IMG/VR virus record: IMGVR_UViG_3300045988_168552
Origin: a virus
DNA length: 64,000 bases
Direction: 5' to 3' (one strand)
Below, piece by piece: positions 41,995-55,118 of the stretch. Below the pieces are notes generated by a model that saw nothing but the letters and a program-made list of their open reading frames with translations, was not told the DNA's origin and searched no databases. The position numbers and the translations under genes were made by a program. Within the stretch, counting starts at the first letter, position 1. Each line of letters starts with the position of its first letter.

Positions 41995-42019
41995 CTGTTC
42001 CCAGTGATTCTATCGCTGG
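41995..42019 (+). repeat. conserved hairpin element, copy 6
   Basis: CTGTTCCCAGTGATTCTATCGCTGG. A C-to-T change in the 5' arm keeps pairing only as G-U on the plus-strand RNA. Confidence 0.8.
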
Positions 42020-42041: not shown

Positions 42042-43148
42042 ATGCAAGAACAGATAAACCTTACCATCCCCCGCGGCTGGAATCAATGCACCCCTTCCCA
42101 GCTAGAGCAGATTGCCCTCATCATGCTGGAGCAGATAGAGAAATCCAAGGCAGACCGCTATCACCCCTTCGATATGCAGAAGGTGAAGGTAGCCGTCTTC
42201 TTCCTCTTTGCCGGGATAAGCATCAATGCCTATCCCGACCCTCGTCTGCCTATCAATGAGCAGCACTACCTGGTAAGCATAGAGCCGCAGAAGAAGAGCC
42301 TCCTGAAGAAGCTCCTCACCATCTGTACCCCCATTCCCAGCGATTCTATCGCTGGTACCCAATCGGCTATCCACTTCCCCCTCTATCTCTGGCAGCTCAA
42401 CTATTGGCTCTCTCCGAAAGCCAAGACCGATGATAAGACCTCCCCTGAGTACATCGCTCAGGGCGCAGGTCTTCTCGATTGGCTGGATGCAGATAGTGGC
42501 AATTTCCTCACCCGCTTCCCCTATCCATCAATCCGTCAGAAATCCAAGTGGTATCGTCGTGCAAAAGCTTTCCGCGGTCCTAACATCGATCTCGATGGTT
42601 TCTCCTGGCAGCAGTACCGTTTTGCCAGCGACATGATGCAGACCTACACCAAGTTAAGCAATAACCTGGTAAAGATGAAGAAGATGGATAAATTCACCGA
42701 GGAACAACTCCAGACGCAAGCCCAGAGTGTAGCCAGCGCCAGAAACATGTTCCTTGCCACCATCTTCAACACCACCACCCAATATATCGACCCGACAACA
42801 GGTATCACAAAATATGATTTTCACTACGAGTCGAAGCAGTTCACCGAGAACGCAGGTTATTTCGTCAATTATCCGGAAGCCAACTGGCAGGTCATCCTCT
42901 TCTGGTGGAGCGGCATCATGCACACCCTAGCCCGTCGCTACCCTCACGTATTCAAGGTGCAGAAGGTAAACAACAGCAAGCCGCAAACCCCGATGGAAAT
43001 CTACACCGCCACCACCGCCACGATGCAGAAGTATGCCGGCTTAACGGAAGATCAGGTCAACACCCAATCCTACTCCCTCGTTCTTGAACATCTCGAAAGG
43101 TTGTCGAAAGAGAATGAGGAAGTGGAAAAAATGAGGAGAGGAAAATGA
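42042..43148 (+). CDS. hypothetical protein (contains hairpin element copy 7 in frame)
   Basis: 368-aa ORF. Its stop overlaps (ATGA) the first TRD-like mini-ORF. Confidence 0.6.
   Translation: MQEQINLTIPRGWNQCTPSQLEQIALIMLEQIEKSKADRYHPFDMQKVKVAVFFLFAGISINAYPDPRLPINEQHYLVSIEPQKKSLLKKLLTICTPIPSDSIAGTQSAIHFPLYLWQLNYWLSPKAKTDDKTSPEYIAQGAGLLDWLDADSGNFLTRFPYPSIRQKSKWYRRAKAFRGPNIDLDGFSWQQYRFASDMMQTYTKLSNNLVKMKKMDKFTEEQLQTQAQSVASARNMFLATIFNTTTQYIDPTTGITKYDFHYESKQFTENAGYFVNYPEANWQVILFWWSGIMHTLARRYPHVFKVQKVNNSKPQTPMEIYTATTATMQKYAGLTEDQVNTQSYSLVLEHLERLSKENEEVEKMRRGK
42330..42355 (+). repeat. conserved hairpin element, copy 7 (inside CDS)
   Basis: CCCATTCCCAGCGATTCTATCGCTGG, translated as PIPSDSIAG. 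Confidence 0.8.
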
Positions 43149-43276
43149 TAGACGTAAAGGTATCTGTACATCCTTTGAGTCATAAACAGAAATGGAAGAA
43201 ATGGGCGGGGCTTTCTCCTGCACTCAGAGCCACCGATTACAAATGCCCACACTGCATAAGGATAGAGTATGAATAA
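43145..43276 (+). CDS. stand-alone C5-MTase TRD-like mini-protein 1
   Basis: 43 aa, too short for the ORF track. LSPALRATDYKCPH resembles the sPTLtA.dYKgp TRD segment. Ends IEYE-TAA in a TATGAATAA junction. Confidence 0.5.
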   Translation: MIDVKVSVHPLSHKQKWKKWAGLSPALRATDYKCPHCIRIEYE

Positions 43277-43400
43277 CCATCGTTTTTACCAATATCCACG
43301 AGGCGAGAATAAGGGCGGTATTCTAAATACGGATCTCTGCCCTACCATTACCATCAATGCGTGGGAGCAGAACGTTTTTCTGATAAAGAAATATGAGTAA
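43269..43400 (+). CDS. stand-alone C5-MTase TRD-like mini-protein 2
   Basis: 43 aa. PRGENKGG...CPTITINAWEQN. The ATG lies inside the upstream TATGAATAA. Ends KKYE-TAA. Confidence 0.5.
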   Translation: MNNHRFYQYPRGENKGGILNTDLCPTITINAWEQNVFLIKKYE

Positions 43401-43719
43401 TAACAACCAACCTCAATACAAGCGAGGAACGATTATCAAGAACGGAAAGAGATATGGCTTTTATCCCGATGGTTCTCTCTATCGGATATACTCCACCTCT
43501 GACCGTCCGTTTCTTGAAATCGTGGATATAGAAGGTAAAACCTTCCTGCGCATCCGTCAGGCGACAGAGCAAGGCTATACCGATTGCCCTGCACCCGGTG
43601 CAGCCGATTTGAATTACCCTACCTCCGCATTAAGACGTAGCCGCACGGTAGGGGGTGGTAAATTAGTAAATGCACTCACGGCTGCCAGTAGCAATCCGTT
43701 TGTGTTTGTAGAATTATAA
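43393..43719 (+). CDS. stand-alone C5-MTase TRD-like protein 3
   Basis: 108 aa. IRQATEQGYTDC...YPTSALRRSRTVGGGKLVNALTA resembles the aTk.GY...p.S.tRRGRVg...TLt TRD type. Confidence 0.6.
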   Translation: MSNNNQPQYKRGTIIKNGKRYGFYPDGSLYRIYSTSDRPFLEIVDIEGKTFLRIRQATEQGYTDCPAPGAADLNYPTSALRRSRTVGGGKLVNALTAASSNPFVFVEL

Positions 43720-43748
43720 ACAAAAAAAGATTTATAGAGCAAAACAAA

Positions 43749-45050
43749 ATGATAACGAAATTCAATTTCAAGGATAAGACCATTAAGTCTTATGCCATCC
43801 GAAAGCTGACACCCTTCGAGTGTTTCCGACTCATGGGTGTGCGAGATGATGTGATCCGCACGATGCAGAGTACCAATGCCGAGGCAGCCGAGCGAGTAGC
43901 TGGCTATAAGAGCAAGGGAAAGGCAGAAGATATGGCAGTATCAGCCAGCCAGCAATACAAGCAGGCAGGCAACTCCATCGTGGTAGATGTACTTGCAGCC
44001 ATCTATCAGCAACTCTGGTACCCGAAAGAACCGAAGCGTGAGGCACAGACTTCTTTCTTTGCCGATTTCTTCCCAGAAGACCAACTTCCACCCTATCCGG
44101 TAGATAAGAACCACGGTGAAAAACTTATTCTCACCACCTTCTCCGGTTATGACTCGCAGCTCATGGCAGCCGATGTCCTCGCCCAGCAGCATCCTGATTT
44201 CCGTTGGACATGTGTAGGCTGGAGCGATATAGACAAATACGCCTGTCAGATGCACGACCTTATCTTTCCGCAGTTTGCTGACAAAGCCTTGGGCGATATA
44301 ACCAAAATCGACTGGCAGCAAGTAAAGAATAATGTGGGGGGCCAAGAAATCGACCTTTTCACCTATTCCTCACCTTGCCAGGATATATCGCAAGCCGGCA
44401 AGCAGATGGGTTTGAAGGAAGGCTCCGATACCCGTTCGGCATTATTGTGGCGAGTAGCCGATGCCGTGGAGGTATTGCGTCCGAAGTATCTGCTTCAGGA
44501 GAATGTGGCAGCCCTGGTAAGCGAGAAGTTTATGCCCGATTTTCAGAAGTGGCGTGATAAGCTCTCGTCTCTCGGCTACGTAAGCCGATGGGCAAGGCTC
44601 AATGCCAAAGACTATGGTGTTCCGCAGAACCGTGACCGTGTTTTCTGCCTCTCAATGAGAAAAGATGTAGCCTTCGATTACCAGTTTCCCGACCCTATTC
44701 CGCTGAAGAGAAAGTTGGAAGATGTGTTGCAGGAGGAAGTAGATACAAGGTTTTTCCTGAAAGATGAAGTCGTCAGCAAGTTCCTTCAGGCAAACGATAA
44801 AGACACCTGCGTCTTCCATCAGTTCGAGATAGATCCGAGTCATGAGAATGCGATGGCATTAAAAGCCATCCTCACCCTTTATATAGAAGAGGCGCATCTT
44901 TGGTATTACACTCCAAAAGAACTGCAGGAGAAGATTTCTTCCGCTCACGAAGACATCATCATGCCGCTGTTCAATGACTGGAAAGAGAACGGCAAGTTCG
45001 CAAATCCTAAGTTGGAAAATATGTATCATCAGTTTTTGAAGAAGAAATGA
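43749..45050 (+). CDS. DNA (cytosine-5) methyltransferase core, circularly permuted (motifs IX-X before I-VIII)
   Basis: 433 aa. N-terminus carries IRKLTPFECFRLMGV (IX) and QQYKQAGNSIVVDVL (X). These are followed by TFSGYDSQ (I), DLFTYSSPCQDISQAG (IV, catalytic PCQ), LLQENV (VI) and YGVPQNRDRVFCLS (VIII). Confidence 0.9.
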   Translation: MITKFNFKDKTIKSYAIRKLTPFECFRLMGVRDDVIRTMQSTNAEAAERVAGYKSKGKAEDMAVSASQQYKQAGNSIVVDVLAAIYQQLWYPKEPKREAQTSFFADFFPEDQLPPYPVDKNHGEKLILTTFSGYDSQLMAADVLAQQHPDFRWTCVGWSDIDKYACQMHDLIFPQFADKALGDITKIDWQQVKNNVGGQEIDLFTYSSPCQDISQAGKQMGLKEGSDTRSALLWRVADAVEVLRPKYLLQENVAALVSEKFMPDFQKWRDKLSSLGYVSRWARLNAKDYGVPQNRDRVFCLSMRKDVAFDYQFPDPIPLKRKLEDVLQEEVDTRFFLKDEVVSKFLQANDKDTCVFHQFEIDPSHENAMALKAILTLYIEEAHLWYYTPKELQEKISSAHEDIIMPLFNDWKENGKFANPKLENMYHQFLKKK

Positions 45051-45196
45051 TTTGTAATCGTTCTATCATCCTTGGCTTGTATAGCCCTTCCCAAAACGGC
45101 ATTGTCGTGCATCCGAAAGGCATTGCCATTTGCCTTACTGGTGGTGGCAAAGGGCACGATGTTGATAAACCGAAAATATTATTAGAGTATGAATAA
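45047..45196 (+). CDS. stand-alone C5-MTase TRD-like mini-protein 4
   Basis: 49 aa. QNGIVVHPKGIAICLTGGGKG parallels the M.HhaI-type QGeRIYs.rGIaiTLsayGGG. ATGA overlap upstream. Ends LEYE-TAA. Confidence 0.55.
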   Translation: MICNRSIILGLYSPSQNGIVVHPKGIAICLTGGGKGHDVDKPKILLEYE

Positions 45197-45341
45197 GGTT
45201 ATTCCTTTCGTAAAACGATTTAAGGAGTTATGCCCACGATTAGAAGGCTACTCCACCGCTCTATCATCGAGATATGATGGATGGGGTGGGCTGTACGACA
45301 ACCACGGGCAACATACAATGTTATTATTAAGATATGACTGA
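45189..45341 (+). CDS. TRD-array mini-protein 5
   Basis: 50 aa. Weakest TRD likeness. The ATG lies inside the TATGAATAA junction. Ends LLRYD-TGA, overlapping the next ATG. Confidence 0.4.
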   Translation: MNKVIPFVKRFKELCPRLEGYSTALSSRYDGWGGLYDNHGQHTMLLLRYD

Positions 45342-45504
45342 AAAGCATTATATCGGATGGTCCCGAGACCATAAAGGCAAGGTTCGCAATCGTCCACGCA
45401 AGGATATAGCGAATGCAGTAACCCAATTCAATAGCGGCGATAGCTATACCAATCAAGACGTTTTGGGTGATACGTCGCCTTATGTAATATATGAATATGA
45501 TTAA
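45334..45504 (+). CDS. stand-alone C5-MTase TRD-like mini-protein 6
   Basis: 56 aa. GWSRDHKGKV...DIANAVTQFNSGDSYTNQDV. Ends VIYEYD-TAA. Confidence 0.5.
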   Translation: MTEKHYIGWSRDHKGKVRNRPRKDIANAVTQFNSGDSYTNQDVLGDTSPYVIYEYD

Positions 45505-45673
45505 GATATTAGCCATTCACGAGGCGAGAACAGAGCACGCCAAGGAAGTACGCAAGCAGACCGGCACCAATGATTATCGGGATAAAGCCATCTTCTTCCG
45601 CGATAATCATTTGATGCAGTGCATTGGCACCTTCCATACGAAAGATAATCTTCTTGCCTTTAGTTATGAATAA
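45491..45673 (+). CDS. stand-alone C5-MTase TRD-like mini-protein 7
   Basis: 60 aa. RTEHAKEVRKQTG...CIGTFHTKDNLL. Ends FSYE-TAA. Confidence 0.55.
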   Translation: MNMIKILAIHEARTEHAKEVRKQTGTNDYRDKAIFFRDNHLMQCIGTFHTKDNLLAFSYE

Positions 45674-45676
45674 AAT

Positions 45677-45859
45677 ATGATTCAGCAAGCCATCATTACT
45701 CACTATCGAACTGAGGAAGCGAAGGCTTATCGCAAGATACACGGCGACAGAGGCGGTTGTCGTTATCAGGATAAGTATCATCGCCCAAGCCCTTACCCCT
45801 GGAGTAACTGCATTTCCACCGTAACAAAAGATAATCTTTTATGGCAACAATACGAATAA
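45677..45859 (+). CDS. stand-alone C5-MTase TRD-like mini-protein 8
   Basis: 60 aa. RTEEAKAYRKIHGD...SNCISTVTKDNLL. Paralog of mini-protein 7. Ends QQYE-TAA. Confidence 0.55.
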   Translation: MIQQAIITHYRTEEAKAYRKIHGDRGGCRYQDKYHRPSPYPWSNCISTVTKDNLLWQQYE

Positions 45860-45999
45860 GAACCTGCGCAAGCAGAGGCAGAGCCGATGGAGATTGGTAT
45901 TCCAACCCTCACTCTGAAAGGCTCGAAATCGGAGACTGCATCAGTAACGCTATTTCCTCTATCGCCAAGGATTTTATGATCATTATCAATTATGAATAA
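45841..45999 (+). CDS. stand-alone C5-MTase TRD-like mini-protein 9
   Basis: 52 aa. ASRGRADGD...ERLEIGDCISNAISSIAKDFMII resembles RGR...QrLE.r.dg.sNtlTsv.KDnlv. Ends INYE-TAA in TATGAATAA. Confidence 0.55.
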   Translation: MATIRIRTCASRGRADGDWYSNPHSERLEIGDCISNAISSIAKDFMIIINYE

Positions 46000-46011
46000 G
46001 AAGAGGAGCAT

Positions 46012-46036
46012 CTGTTCCCAGCGATTCTATCGCTGG
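46012..46036 (+). repeat. conserved hairpin element, copy 8
   Basis: CTGTTCCCAGCGATTCTATCGCTGG, in the leader upstream of ATG 46176. Confidence 0.85.
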
Positions 46037-46175
46037 TTCCCTCCCTTCTTTGTCCCCACCAAAGCCATAAAAATCCCTAACTTTACACTCAGAAACAAGA
46101 GAAATAGGCGCGCGTATATCGCCGCCCTTCTCTCTTCCATCACATTCAGGATAACATATAAAAAGAAACGCAAAA

Positions 46176-47993
46176 ATGGCAAGCAAAAACAAAAACAGAG
46201 TAACCAACCTGCAGCAGCTCCAAAATCGTAGTGAGGAACTGAAAGATGCAGGCTATGTAGCCGTTCGGCCAGATGCTTTTACGTCGCCTAAGAACGGCGG
46301 CAATAAGGTCTTTTCCTGGAACGACTACGTTCACGGCATGCTCCTAACCACAGCCGGTATGTCGGCAAGCGGTGGCGACGCAGGCGGTTCCGCAGCACGT
46401 CAGCAAGTCTCCACTATCTTTGCATCAAGCGGCGGCGAGAACCTGGGCAAACCGAAGGACGTAGGTACCGAAGGCTTAGGCTTTATGGAATGGGGTATGG
46501 CCAACCGACTGCCAAACCTTATCTGGATGCTCTCCCGTATGTCGCCTTTCACGGCAGCAGGAGTAGATTACATCAAGAAGATACTGGTAGGTCGTGGTCC
46601 CGCAGCCAAGTATCATTACACTCAGTACGTAGGCGGGAATATCACGGAGAAATATATCCCCTACGAGAGCGCAGGAGTCCTGCTCCGTGGTCAGATAGCT
46701 GACCTGAAAGCCAAGGAAGAGGCAGCCGCCGAAGCCAAGCGTCAGAACGAGCAGCAGAGCCAGAACGGGCAGTCTCAGCAGTCAGAGTCTCCGTTCCCTG
46801 CGGTTCAATCGCAGGTCTTATCCTCCGATGAAGAGGAAAGCGAGGAGATGAAATCTCTGAAAGAAGCCCTCCACAAATGGGAAGAAACCAATGCGCAGCT
46901 TCGTGATTTCCTGGAAAACAATGACCTGATGCAGACCTTCCTCGATTTGGCAGGCGATATGGCTCTGATGTCTCAGTGCTTTGTAGAACTCCAGCTCAAT
47001 CAGCGTTCCCTCGACGAGAACGGCAAAGCTGTTCCTACTGCCCAATGGACCCCGAAGGTAATCGGTCTGAAGCATCGCAGCATCTTCACCACCCGACTGG
47101 AGCGCATGGACGAGAACTACCGCATCAACTATGCCTACGTGAGCAATCAATGGCTCGACCCTACACAATACGTCGGCGTGCAGAAAGAGGAAGACCGCAA
47201 GATAGCGGCTATCCCCTATCTCCCTACCACATCAGCCGTGAAGGATTTGCAGCGCAATATCCGTGAGGCACGTCAGAAGCAGGTAAGCCGCAAGAAACGC
47301 CCTACCCGCTTCATCATGTCGCCAAGAGATTTCGGTGGTCCGTACTATGCCGATGCCCTTTGGCACTCCATCTTTGCCGGCAGCATCTTCGAGTATGCCT
47401 TCACCATCGTAGATGACCGCCTCACCCGAAAGCGCAACAGCAATATCATCGGTAGAGTTATCTATATCCATCAGGACTATATCAGCAGGCTCTATCAGCA
47501 ACAGGGCGAGCAGAAAAAGAAGACCTACGGCGAGATTCAGAATGAAATCTTTACTTCTATCAATACATGGCTCGCCAATCCCGATAATGCAGGTCAGGCG
47601 CTCATTTCCTCTGCCTTCACGGGCAGCGATGGAAACGAGCACAAGGCTTGGGAAATCGTGGAAATCGAAACCAAGGCAAATGATCAGGCAAATGCCGATA
47701 AGACCGAGCTGCAGGAAATAAGTAGTATCATCTTCTTTGCCATGGGTCTTGATGCCAAGCTCATCGGTAATACTCCTGGCGATACGGCATCATCGGGCGG
47801 TACCGACCTGAGAGAACGTTTCCTGGTAAAGCAAATCCAGTTTGCCCCATTGCAGCAGTTGATGATACGCCCACTGGAAGTTTTGAGCCGCTTCAACGAT
47901 TGGGATGAGCATCTGGTATGGCAGATAGACAGAGAGGTATTGACTACCCTCGATAACTCGAAGACCGGAGTGGCAAAACAAGAGACCTCTTAA
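46176..47993 (+). CDS. portal protein candidate
   Basis: 605 aa, a size typical of portals. Sits behind a hairpin element and ahead of structural genes. The N-terminal FMEWGMANRLPNLIW segment is portal-like by eye only. Confidence 0.5.
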   Translation: MASKNKNRVTNLQQLQNRSEELKDAGYVAVRPDAFTSPKNGGNKVFSWNDYVHGMLLTTAGMSASGGDAGGSAARQQVSTIFASSGGENLGKPKDVGTEGLGFMEWGMANRLPNLIWMLSRMSPFTAAGVDYIKKILVGRGPAAKYHYTQYVGGNITEKYIPYESAGVLLRGQIADLKAKEEAAAEAKRQNEQQSQNGQSQQSESPFPAVQSQVLSSDEEESEEMKSLKEALHKWEETNAQLRDFLENNDLMQTFLDLAGDMALMSQCFVELQLNQRSLDENGKAVPTAQWTPKVIGLKHRSIFTTRLERMDENYRINYAYVSNQWLDPTQYVGVQKEEDRKIAAIPYLPTTSAVKDLQRNIREARQKQVSRKKRPTRFIMSPRDFGGPYYADALWHSIFAGSIFEYAFTIVDDRLTRKRNSNIIGRVIYIHQDYISRLYQQQGEQKKKTYGEIQNEIFTSINTWLANPDNAGQALISSAFTGSDGNEHKAWEIVEIETKANDQANADKTELQEISSIIFFAMGLDAKLIGNTPGDTASSGGTDLRERFLVKQIQFAPLQQLMIRPLEVLSRFNDWDEHLVWQIDREVLTTLDNSKTGVAKQETS

Positions 47994-53909: not shown

Positions 53910-55118
53910 ATGGATAGAAAAATTTTAGTCACTGGAACGGGTATTCATTCTGCCCTAGGCAGAAATACAAAAGAAGTAGCCCTCAATCTTTCCCAGGGCA
54001 AATGCGGTTTGGTTCATGATATGTGCCGCAACTACTATAACTCCGATCTGTGCGGAGACGTACCTAGTTGGGCAGAAGATTATGAGAAAATCCTTACCCA
54101 TGCGCAGAATGCCTGCCTGCCTCTGCATGGTTTCACCGTCCTCAATGCCGTATTTGAAGCGCTGAAGAACGCAAAGGTCAGCAAGGATTTCTTGGAAAAT
54201 CATAACGTTTCCATCATCGTAAGCAATGACTCTGAATGTTATGAGAGCCAAACCGTGGTGGACCATGTGAATAAAAATCGTCACAACCGCTCTTTGCCGG
54301 TAAATACCCTGTTCCGTTCGCTCAACTCCACTATCAGTATGAACCTGGCATCCATCCTCCATATCCACGGCTTATCGCTTACCGTAAGCGCAGCCTGTGC
54401 CGGAGGAGGTCACGCCATCGGTCTTGCCAAGATGCTTCTCGATAGCAAGCAGACGGAAATGGTAATCGTGATTGGCGCGCAGGAATGCGAATCTAATTAC
54501 TGCATGGAAGCTTTCGATGCTCTCGGTGTTTTCTCACCCGATAATGTGCAGCCGTTTGGTAAAGGCAGAAATGGATTGGCACCATCAGGTGGTGCAGCCT
54601 GCATCATCCTTGAACCATCGGATAGTTTTCGTCTGAAAGAAGAGAAGGTGTATTCCTTCGCTTCTCTTTCCGGCTATGGCTTCTCTACCAATGGAAAAGC
54701 CATCACTACTCCTGATACCTATCAGGAAGAAGTATCTATGCTGAATGCTATCGAGAACGCAGGTCTGGACGAAGGTATGATAGACGTAGTACTTGCTCAT
54801 GCTACCGGTACCCCGATGGGCGATGAAGCCGAGGCAAAGGCAATAGAGAAGGTCTTTCCTATCTGTCCGAACGTAGTAGCCACAAAAGGCTTAACGGGTC
54901 ACGAGTGCTGGATGGCAGGCGTATCGCAAGCCGTGCAAGCCGTGATGATGCTCACCTACGGCCGTCTTTTTGGCGCTGTAACCACCGAGGAGAATGCCTT
55001 CCCATCCCTCAATCTTGTGATGCGCCCGAAGTCCTATGCTCCTCACCATATTCTCTGTAACGCCTTCGGTTTTGGCGGTACCAATTCATCCTTTATCATC
55101 TCAAAAGCATTGTTATGA
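53910..55118 (+). CDS. beta-ketoacyl-ACP synthase, KAS I/II (FabB/FabF-like) class
   Basis: 402 aa. ILVTGTGIHSALG, active-site Cys in SAACAGGGHAIGLA, PFGKGRNGLAPSGGAA, His in AHATGTPMGDEAE, ATKGLTGHECWMAG, NAFGFGGTNSS. Consistent with a Cys-His-His triad. Confidence 0.9.
   Translation: MDRKILVTGTGIHSALGRNTKEVALNLSQGKCGLVHDMCRNYYNSDLCGDVPSWAEDYEKILTHAQNACLPLHGFTVLNAVFEALKNAKVSKDFLENHNVSIIVSNDSECYESQTVVDHVNKNRHNRSLPVNTLFRSLNSTISMNLASILHIHGLSLTVSAACAGGGHAIGLAKMLLDSKQTEMVIVIGAQECESNYCMEAFDALGVFSPDNVQPFGKGRNGLAPSGGAACIILEPSDSFRLKEEKVYSFASLSGYGFSTNGKAITTPDTYQEEVSMLNAIENAGLDEGMIDVVLAHATGTPMGDEAEAKAIEKVFPICPNVVATKGLTGHECWMAGVSQAVQAVMMLTYGRLFGAVTTEENAFPSLNLVMRPKSYAPHHILCNAFGFGGTNSSFIISKALL

Follow-up and report, generated by a model that had tools for sequence, protein, structure and literature searches.

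Organization of the locus

We analysed a 64-kb stretch of viral DNA, IMG/VR virus record IMGVR_UViG_3300045988_168552 (all 64,000 nucleotides are referred to as the window), in which the gene for a circularly permuted C5-cytosine methyltransferase (MTase), the core, is flanked by an array of nine short open reading frames (ORFs), m1 to m9. These mini-ORFs encode 43-108 amino acids (aa) and fall into eight families; three lie upstream and six downstream of the core (Table 1). An earlier note, made from the sequence alone, had described them as detached target-recognition domains (TRDs) joined by a conserved stop/start string, TATGAATAA. All ten ORFs that it listed, the core and the nine mini-ORFs, were confirmed with their coordinates on the + strand.

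Nearly all mini-ORFs had been said to end in Tyr-Glu or Tyr-Asp, and eight of the nine do; m3 ends in VEL. The identical 124-nt spacing of the first three is real but trivial, being the outcome of two 43-aa ORFs that each overlap the next by 8 nt. A spacer of 29 nt, with stop codons in the frame of the core, separates m3 from the core. Judging by its relatives, which begin MIKIL, m7 probably starts at its second ATG (45497); this start gives an 8-nt overlap with m6. At 45665-45680, a four-codon ORF (ATG AAT AAA ATA TGA) bridges m7 and m8 at the site where relatives carry a cassette of family F9, and it resembles the remains of a cassette-precise deletion or an unoccupied insertion site.

Table 1. 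Coordinates of the methyltransferase locus and adjoining features in the window.
Feature	Coordinates	Strand	Remarks
Hairpin CCAGTGATTCTATCGCTGG	42001..42019	+	Upstream of the 368-aa ORF and the array
368-aa ORF	42042-43148	+	Upstream of the array; ATGA overlap with the m1 start
m1, 43 aa, family F14	43145..43276	+	C-terminus IEYE; start overlaps the stop of the 368-aa ORF
m2, 43 aa, family F3, motif PRGxNxGG..CPTIT	43269..43400	+	C-terminus KKYE; 8-nt overlap with m1
m3, 108 aa, family F4	43393..43719	+	TRD type IRQATxxGY..YPxSxxRRxR..TLT; C-terminus FVFVEL
Permuted C5-cytosine MTase core, 433 aa	43749..45050	+	PF00145, 6e-50; without TRD recognition loops
Motif IX IRKLTPFECFRLMG	43797-43838	+	Core N-terminus, residues 17-30
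Motif X YKQAGNSIVVDVL	43956-43994	+	Core N-terminus, residues 70-82
Motif I FSGYDSQ	44130-44159	+	Core residues 128-137
Motif IV SSPCQ	44364-44390	+	Core residues 206-214
Motif VI QENV	44490-44516	+	Core residues 248-256
Motif VIII QNRDR	44619-44645	+	Core residues 291-299
Retained N-terminal part of the variable region	44673..44804	+	Aligns to M.HhaI ~190-225
C-terminal extension, ~80 aa, specific to the core family	44805..45047	+	Helical in a low-confidence model
m4, 49 aa, family F2, HhaI-like TRD core SQNG..GIAICLTGGGKG	45047..45196	+	C-terminus LEYE; 4-nt ATGA overlap with the core stop
m5, 50 aa, family F7	45189..45341	+	C-terminus LRYD
m6, 56 aa, family F15	45334..45504	+	C-terminus YEYD
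m7, 60 aa, family F1	45491..45673	+	C-terminus FSYE; probable start at the second ATG, 45497
m8, 60 aa, second F1 member	45677..45859	+	C-terminus QQYE; AAT alone between the m7 stop and m8
m9, 52 aa, family F6	45841..45999	+	C-terminus INYE; 19-nt overlap with m8
79-aa ORF, family F16	45992..46231	+	Begins at the last TATGAATAA; dN/dS ~0.9
Hairpin copy CCAGCGATTCTATCGCTGG	46018..46036	+	19 nt past the last mini-ORF

The core is a permuted C5-cytosine methyltransferase without the recognition part of the TRD

A Pfam scan matched PF00145 to the core (6e-50) in two stretches, and motifs I, IV, VI, VIII, IX and X of C5-cytosine DNA MTases were all located in it. Motifs IX and X lie N-terminal to I-VIII, with the breakpoint in the variable region, so that the order IX-X-I-IV-VI-VIII is a circular permutation, as the earlier note had proposed. 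De-permuting the core in silico merged the two stretches into one (profile 23-322), and the rearranged protein aligned to M.MpeI and M.HhaI through PCQ, ENV and QNRDR. Core relatives in the databases number 7,954.

The note had further claimed that the core has no TRD, and this is borne out for the part that carries the recognition loops. In the alignment to M.HhaI, the TRD that should lie between motifs VIII and IX of the same polypeptide is missing. The first ~45 residues past motif VIII correspond to the start of the variable region and are retained, and the alignment stops at about M.HhaI residue 225. Residues 226-257 of M.HhaI (GIAITL..GGG) were matched only once m4 was spliced between core residue 356 and the core N-terminus, which indicates that the core lacks the TRD core.

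Two other features of the protein bear on how a separate TRD might be accommodated. First, the ~80-aa C-terminal extension shows partial conservation in the core-family alignment and is missing from the 271-aa alpha subunit of the split relative L082 (see below). We propose this extension as a candidate docking platform; its helical character was read by DSSP from a low-confidence model of P0096, a natural fusion of a core with an F2 mini-ORF. Second, the core begins MITKFNFKDKTIKSYA-IRKLTP and thus has a tail-like strand of its own (KTIKSYA) directly ahead of motif IX.

Motif I of the core reads FSGYDS(Q), the second Gly of FxGxG being replaced by Asp. The canonical-order enzyme of Prevotella sp. 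tf2-5 has the same residue, so that the Asp is a lineage trait and not a defect; the canonical Prevotella relative L092 shows the motif in this form.

No similar locus was found by blastn and tblastn against 50,697 GenBank phages. The best core matches in Bacillus phages were considered as similar loci and rejected, as they are merely adjacent ordinary MTase genes.

TRD relationships of the mini-ORFs

Taken singly, the mini-ORFs gave no significant match in Pfam or PHROG; the PF00145 search of each one, which the earlier note had proposed as a check, gave no Pfam match. Weak PHROG matches were limited to phrog_8411 and phrog_16427 (C-terminal-half MTases), to which m3 and the N-terminus of the core aligned collinearly.

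Comparisons with larger collections linked several mini-ORFs to TRDs. A phmmer search of m3 (F4) against 1.84 billion representative proteins returned 180 significant matches, among them canonical full-length PF00145 enzymes that are matched exactly in the TRD position. The 333-aa protein P0204, for example, is matched at 210-269, between QNRDR and motif IX, and P0218 and P0234 are matched alike. The same search recovered chains of head-to-tail fused TRDs that close in motifs IX-X (P0238, P0241, P0194, P0203, P0239 and P0249). Profile hidden Markov models (HMMs) of F0, F1, F6, F8, F9, F23 and F26 matched consecutive 45-50-aa units of such chains, with E-values calculated for a nominal database of one million sequences. 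The F1 HMM (m7 and m8) reached 48 bits on these units, and the F6 HMM (m9) matched 17 fused-chain proteins at E < 0.001, with up to 55 bits. By homology, m3, m7, m8 and m9 are clearly TRD units.

For two further mini-ORFs the link is indirect. Family F2, to which m4 belongs, aligned to F9 by hhalign with 95.6% probability, and F9 units occur in the fused chains; TRD homology of m4 is well supported by this profile match. The family of m5, F7, aligned to F0 with 90% probability (F0-F5, 95%), and F0 units are likewise found in fused chains, which makes m5 a weaker candidate for TRD homology. A marginal match of m2 (F3) within the chain protein P0203 (21 bits) makes its assignment marginal. For m1 (F14) no TRD match was found beyond a weak hhalign link to F4 (54% probability), and m6 (F15) had no significant TRD match; the TRD status of both rests on size, position and a shared tail and is unproven. 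The earlier claim that the mini-ORFs are of TRD type therefore stands for five homologues, with a sixth marginal, and falls short for m1 and m6.

That most of them resemble known TRD flavours was a further claim of the note, and it was upheld only in part. Only m4 aligned to a solved TRD (M.HhaI 226-257), and weakly, at about +5 bits. Profiles of F2 and F4 found no TRD match among the Protein Data Bank sequences, and m3 spliced into the core gave no alignment to any solved TRD. Inserting mini-ORFs into the de-permuted core raised the PF00145 score by 2-12 bits. We rejected this gain as TRD evidence, because shuffled or reversed mini-ORFs score the same (176-182 bits) and the gain is thus a spacer effect.

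A C-terminal tail is common to otherwise unrelated families and reads approximately [P/T/G]-x-[IVL]-[LVI]-[ILF]-E-Y-[E/D] or V-x-V-E-L. In single-chain relatives the equivalent strand leads straight into motif IX, as in PKVLLRY-RIRKLTP of P0194.

Some array members found in relatives, for instance at L010 5299-5457 and 5629-5802, are not TRD-like. Family F19 is Cys-rich (CTQC...CPNC) and, as we read it, zinc-ribbon-like; F21 has a CxxC and the C-terminus VIVEI. F17 is a 33-aa acidic peptide with little beyond a docking-type tail, FVLIEYD. These three families could be regulators or blank plugs.

Conservation, selection and cassette turnover in relatives

A scan of viral contigs yielded 136 core relatives, and 80 loci, mostly on contigs of ~50-110 kb, were analysed. 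The core was present in 77 of 77 analysable relatives. Co-oriented mini-ORFs stood beside it in every locus read in detail; a conservative chain walk counted between 0 and 13 of them upstream and between 0 and 12 downstream. The largest arrays have about 20 units. Clustering gave ~25 recurrent mini-ORF families. In a tblastn census of 79 loci we counted ~960 mini-ORF copies, those of the window among them and none on the strand opposite the core; ~75% were intact ORFs of the expected length.

Ratios of nonsynonymous to synonymous substitution (dN/dS, median pairwise, Nei-Gojobori) were 0.14 for the core and 0.05-0.35 for the mini-ORF families, which shows, at the level of sequence, that the latter are under purifying selection. 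The values for the families in the window were 0.25 (m1, F14), 0.27 (m2, F3), 0.11 (m3, F4), 0.10 (m4, F2), 0.14 (m5, F7), 0.31 (m6, F15), 0.15 (m7, F1) and 0.21 (m9, F6). The 79-aa ORF at 45992-46231, which follows the array, is probably not a gene because its family, F16, has a dN/dS of ~0.9; it is probably a non-coding leader ahead of a 605-aa ORF at 46176.

These data bear on whether the mini-ORFs are remnants of a once-fused multispecific MTase, or the product of assembly or frameshift errors. About 25% of the copies are truncated or broken, as decay would have it, and one array lacks an adjacent core: at 2410-3857 of L093, about eight TRD mini-ORFs lie beside RecT and YqaJ genes. No PF00145 gene was found within the 7.2-kb locus read there (the queried mini-ORF with 3.5 kb of sequence to either side), and several members are truncated or have non-ATG starts. 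The array of L093 may be orphaned and decaying. However, a dN/dS far below 1 in every mini-ORF family (0.05-0.35) rules out simple pseudogene decay. Starts and stops are kept across cores that are only 66-75% identical, and the start codons carry a signature of selection (see the next section). Assembly frameshifts are ruled out because the exact sequences of m4, m3 and m8 of the window occur on 13, 64 and 150 contigs, respectively, of independent assemblies; the public annotation of these identical copies is 'hypothetical protein'. Decay and artefact are thus largely refuted and extremely improbable as an account of the array; the note, too, had argued against random decay.

The content of the arrays turns over quickly. 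Phages with 95%-identical cores differ sharply in their cassettes, and insertions and deletions respect cassette boundaries: the two F1 genes, separated in the window by AAT alone, enclose an F9 cassette in L010.

Two relatives have a different architecture. L082 (3921-6170) and L094 (2753-4421), on phage-like contigs of which one was binned as Muribaculaceae, encode split multispecific C5-MTases. In each, the gene for an alpha subunit with motifs I-VIII (268-271 aa) precedes that for a beta subunit of 4-6 fused TRDs and motifs IX-X. Two of the fused TRD chains described above belong here, P0194 to L082 and P0241 to L094, and L082 also holds one stand-alone F0-like mini-ORF. The family of the window looks like a further step, in which IX-X has been fused ahead of I-VIII and the TRD chain has been broken into genes on both sides. 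In such a protein, both flanks of the core are topologically between VIII and IX.

Junctions between the mini-ORFs

The string TATGAATAA reads Tyr-Glu/Asp-stop, with the ATG of the next ORF embedded in it (TAT-G). It had been reported at five junctions; it actually occurs four times in the window (0.76 expected), each time at a mini-ORF end, and three more junctions fit TATGANTRR. Among relatives only TAT-GAN-TRR is left of the string, a pattern that coding constraints account for, so that the string is not the conserved junction signal that the note took it for.

Junction geometry is diverse. Among 684 junctions, 250 have an 8-nt overlap and 98 a 4-nt ATGA overlap; overlaps of 19, 14 and 11 nt also occur, and in ~40% the ORFs are separated by 0-78 nt, the whole range being -25 to +78 nt. 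All three stop codons are used at mini-ORF ends (TAA 259, TGA 94 and TAG 58). The frame steps over the ten junctions of the window are 2, 1, 1, 2, 2, 1, 1, 1, 0 and 2; the stepping by +1 pointed out earlier is thus true of half of them, and the other half step by 2 or 0. No promoter- or terminator-like signal above chance was found inside the array.

Codon use at the overlaps is informative. The penultimate Tyr is encoded by TAT in 223 of 260 unique mini-ORFs, against a background of 60% (odds ratio 4.1, P = 4e-18), which indicates that selection keeps each mini-ORF's own start codon. The fused-chain units that we read close in E-x-E or similar, without a penultimate Tyr. Together, the TAT enrichment and the missing Tyr of fused units suggest that linkers were converted to stop/start overlaps and that each unit is initiated independently, probably by termination-reinitiation coupling.

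The note had offered two mechanisms, TRD subunits supplied in trans and programmed recoding, in which frameshifting or read-through at the junctions would yield tandem TRDs in one covalent chain, as in single-chain multispecific enzymes, whether or not the core is joined to them. Homologous TRDs do exist as fused chains (P0238, P0241 and P0194), the two frames at the common 8-nt overlap could be joined by shifting +1 at the stop, and P0096, a rare database protein, is a natural core+F2 fusion. However, the indel behind P0096 lies 20 codons ahead of the junction and not at the junction itself. The geometry is heterogeneous (250 and 98 of the 684 junctions with 8-nt and 4-nt overlaps, ~40% with gaps), and no conserved recoding site with a fixed geometry was found among them, the consensus being only TAT-GAN-TRR. 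With unequal frame steps, and with stop codons in the core frame of the m3-core spacer, the units could not be fused by any one recoding rule. GAN or GCT precedes the stop in junctions of variable sequence, and on our reading this allows no slippery re-pairing. The selection on ATG that the TAT enrichment reveals would be needless for a fusion. Given the varied geometries, the use of all three stops, the lack of a plausible slippery site and the retention of TAT, we favour subunits acting in trans and regard recoding as very unlikely. Reassignment of a stop codon was rejected as well, since all three stops are in use and neighbouring ORFs lie in different frames.

The same junctions were considered as recombination sites. 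An inversion shufflon or site-specific recombination site was rejected: all 960 of 960 copies are direct, and the putative site is merely TAT-GAN-TRR. A different proposal is that most mini-ORFs are a reservoir of donors for recombination, by which a TRD would come to lie next to the core or another MTase, or to share its reading frame. The differing content of phages with 95%-identical cores, indels exactly at junctions (F9 in L010, absent from the window), the junction microhomology TATGA and the existence of the fusion P0096 are in keeping with this. However, every cassette keeps its own ATG and stop, both under selection, and silent cassettes would not need start codons. That all copies are direct repeats argues against an inversion system, and no recombinase gene adjoined the module in the loci whose ORFs were read, a systematic search not being part of that reading. 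A reservoir of silent donors is, in our view, improbable.

Proposed mechanism

The interpretation that we prefer has somewhat better than an even chance of being correct: separately translated TRD mini-ORFs complement one TRD-less core in trans and so give it many specificities. The core, with motifs IX-X-I...VIII, the first half of the variable region and the C-terminal extension, would supply S-adenosylmethionine (AdoMet) binding and catalysis. Each mini-ORF would be translated alone into a TRD module of 43-108 aa, most of them starting by termination-reinitiation at the ATG embedded in the preceding Tyr-Glu/Asp-stop. One module at a time would dock non-covalently between the C-terminal variable half of the core and its N-terminal motif IX, probably through the shared tail (three hydrophobic residues and E-Y-D/E, or V-x-V-E-L), and complete the small domain. 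Hypothetically, the tail of the mini-ORF product would pair with, or exchange for, the N-terminal strand of the core. A repertoire of modules would yield many 5-methylcytosine (5mC) specificities and shield the phage DNA from the varied restriction systems of Bacteroidales, probably Prevotella, and gain or loss of cassettes at the junctions would retune it. The sequence data establish the gene structure, purifying selection, TRD homology for five mini-ORFs (marginal for a sixth), selection on the start codons and cassette turnover; docking, enzymatic activity, the pairing of each module with one motif and a role against restriction are inferred.

A fuller version of this proposal is a plug-and-play MTase, in which up to ~20 interchangeable mini-ORFs of 45-60 aa dock by a shared beta-strand tail and are reshuffled cassette by cassette in a restriction arms race; we hold it about equally likely to be right or wrong.

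Non-covalent assembly of this kind has precedent. C5-MTases tolerate it across the variable region, as seen in M.AquI and in engineered splits (PMC5944983), and the closest relatives of the window's system are already split into alpha and beta subunits.

Several observations speak against free TRD modules acting in trans. First, the nearest engineered counterpart, a class-J permutant of M.MpeI/M.SssI split into IX/X-I...VIII and a stand-alone TRD, was inactive (PMC5944983); if the natural system works, dedicated docking features must have evolved, and the shared mini-ORF tail and the C-terminal extension of the core are the candidates. Second, the core has its own tail-like strand (KTIKSYA) before motif IX, and a docked tail would need to pair with it or displace it. 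Third, three of the nine mini-ORFs of the window (m1, m2 and m6) have no significant TRD match. Fourth, the truncated or broken ~25% of copies indicate that individual cassettes are dispensable. In addition, the fused TRD chains of relatives mean that a covalent product would also be functional in principle. Finally, AlphaFold2 applied to the natural core+F2 fusion P0096 (29 shallow homologues) gave a model with a mean predicted local distance difference test score (pLDDT) of 58, which is unusable.

The failure of engineered stand-alone TRD fragments to complement (PMC5944983) is equally a point for a self-sufficient core. In that case the helical extension would be an unconventional TRD, or the core would have relaxed specificity, and the mini-ORFs would be regulators, competitive modulators or binders of DNA sites. 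Conservation of the ~80-aa extension fits such a role, as do the acidic F17 and the Cys-rich F19 and F21, which are not TRD-like. However, the mini-ORFs share homology with TRD units working within MTase chains, they adjoin the core in the same orientation in 79 loci despite differing flanking genes, and the core misses precisely the segment that they encode. We therefore consider a self-sufficient core unlikely, though a more serious contender than a silent donor reservoir, recoding or decay.

Comparison with known systems

The multispecific C5-MTases of Bacillus phages (M.SPRI, M.Phi3TI, M.Rho11sI and M.H2I) carry tandem TRDs in a single polypeptide with the canonical motif order, and each TRD presumably adds one specificity to the single catalytic core; PMC12707154 cites Trautner et al. 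1996 for them. Like these SPR-type enzymes, the system of the window is phage-encoded, probably directed against restriction, and has several short tandem TRDs per catalytic core, here nine TRD-sized units of eight families. It differs in having separate TRD genes, a permuted core and arrays of up to about 20 units. TRDs and motifs were not found in a single polypeptide; each unit has its own ATG and stop across the 79 loci.

The split enzymes of L082 and L094 are closer. They share the catalytic lineage, families F0, F1, F4, F6, F8, F9 and F23 and phage-like contexts, and they are already non-covalent across the variable region. They differ in that their TRDs are chained covalently to IX-X, the catalytic subunit is not permuted, and linkers take the place of stop/start overlaps. 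The statement in the note that known precedents cover only parts of the system accordingly needs updating, as these metagenomic relatives fuse the same TRD families beside a separate I-VIII subunit. In the literature searched, most subscription journals lying outside its scope, we found no description of detached TRD arrays or of the L082/L094 split architecture.

Multi-subunit assembly is also known from the natural two-subunit C5-MTases M.AquI and M.EcoHK31I. The separate polypeptides of M.AquI (alpha/beta), which is broken within its variable region, assemble into an active enzyme (PMC5944983). In both enzymes, unlike here, each of the two subunits has catalytic motifs, there is a single specificity, and a free TRD or an array is absent. 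Nor does the window have an M.AquI-type split: IX-X is fused with I-VIII, and the TRD units alone are separate. M.BssHII, M.Alw26I, M2.Eco31I, M.Esp3I and M2.BsaI have IX-X before I-VIII, with the permutation point in the variable region (PMC5944983). These differ in being single chains that keep their TRD, mostly of type H (TRD-IX-X-I...VIII), whereas the core of the window has no TRD core at either terminus.

By logic and not by membership, the array resembles the HsdS subunits of Type I systems, where a separate specificity protein programs the MTase and cassettes vary. HsdS subunits are far larger than modules of 45-60 aa, and recombination in the phase-variable hsdS systems works by inversion. 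Their fold and chemistry (N6-adenine) are unrelated to those of the C5-MTases, and the modules of the window are several times smaller. In Type I systems, translation of the specificity gene is coupled to that of the MTase gene (PMC3510504). Switching of specificity in phase-variable hsdS systems by recombination between duplicated hsdS genes is described in bioRxiv 10.1101/2020.06.18.137471.

The phage and the flanking elements

The window derives from a ~100-kb phage that is common in the human gut and probably has Prevotella as its host. A 2031-aa tape-measure-like protein and an S49 protease-like protein identify a tailed virus. No relationship to GenBank phages was found at the DNA level. 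The host is suggested by database labels (Caudoviricetes sp. and metagenome-assembled genomes of Prevotella sp.) and by the canonical-order relative in the isolate Prevotella sp. tf2-5.

A hairpin, CCAGCGATTCYATCGCTGG (8-bp stem, 3-nt loop), occurs in seven copies in the window, all on the + strand (at 1282, 6064, 30831, 36488, 42001, 42337 and 46018), against 0.05 expected, and most copies are intergenic. It may serve in termination, in processing or in some other form of regulation. The copies at 42001 and 46018 bracket the methyltransferase unit and possibly mark the boundary of an expression unit.

The 368-aa ORF at 42042-43148 had no match in Pfam or PHROG. It is translationally coupled to m1 through ATGA and travels with the module in close relatives, not in distant ones. 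Elsewhere in the window, 53910-55118 (+) encodes a complete 402-aa beta-ketoacyl synthase (PF00109, 1e-24; PF02801, 3e-19), which by these matches is an unusual auxiliary metabolic gene for a tailed phage.

Implications

If the mini-ORFs act in trans, sequence recognition by a C5-MTase could be delivered by a free module of 45-60 aa, which would be the smallest known autonomous specificity subunit of any DNA methyltransferase. Confirmation would overturn the expectation that a free TRD module of a C5-MTase cannot function. The system would also be a natural scaffold for programmable cytosine methylation, and its ~25 TRD families would form a catalogue whose targets could be read from natural presence/absence variants. 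The evolutionary path would be clear, inter-domain linkers having become stop/start overlaps under selection that can be seen in codon use. The lineage is abundant, with thousands of database relatives and single mini-ORFs on up to 150 contigs, and the proposed mechanism would explain how such an abundant lineage of gut phages copes with the diverse restriction systems of Bacteroidales.

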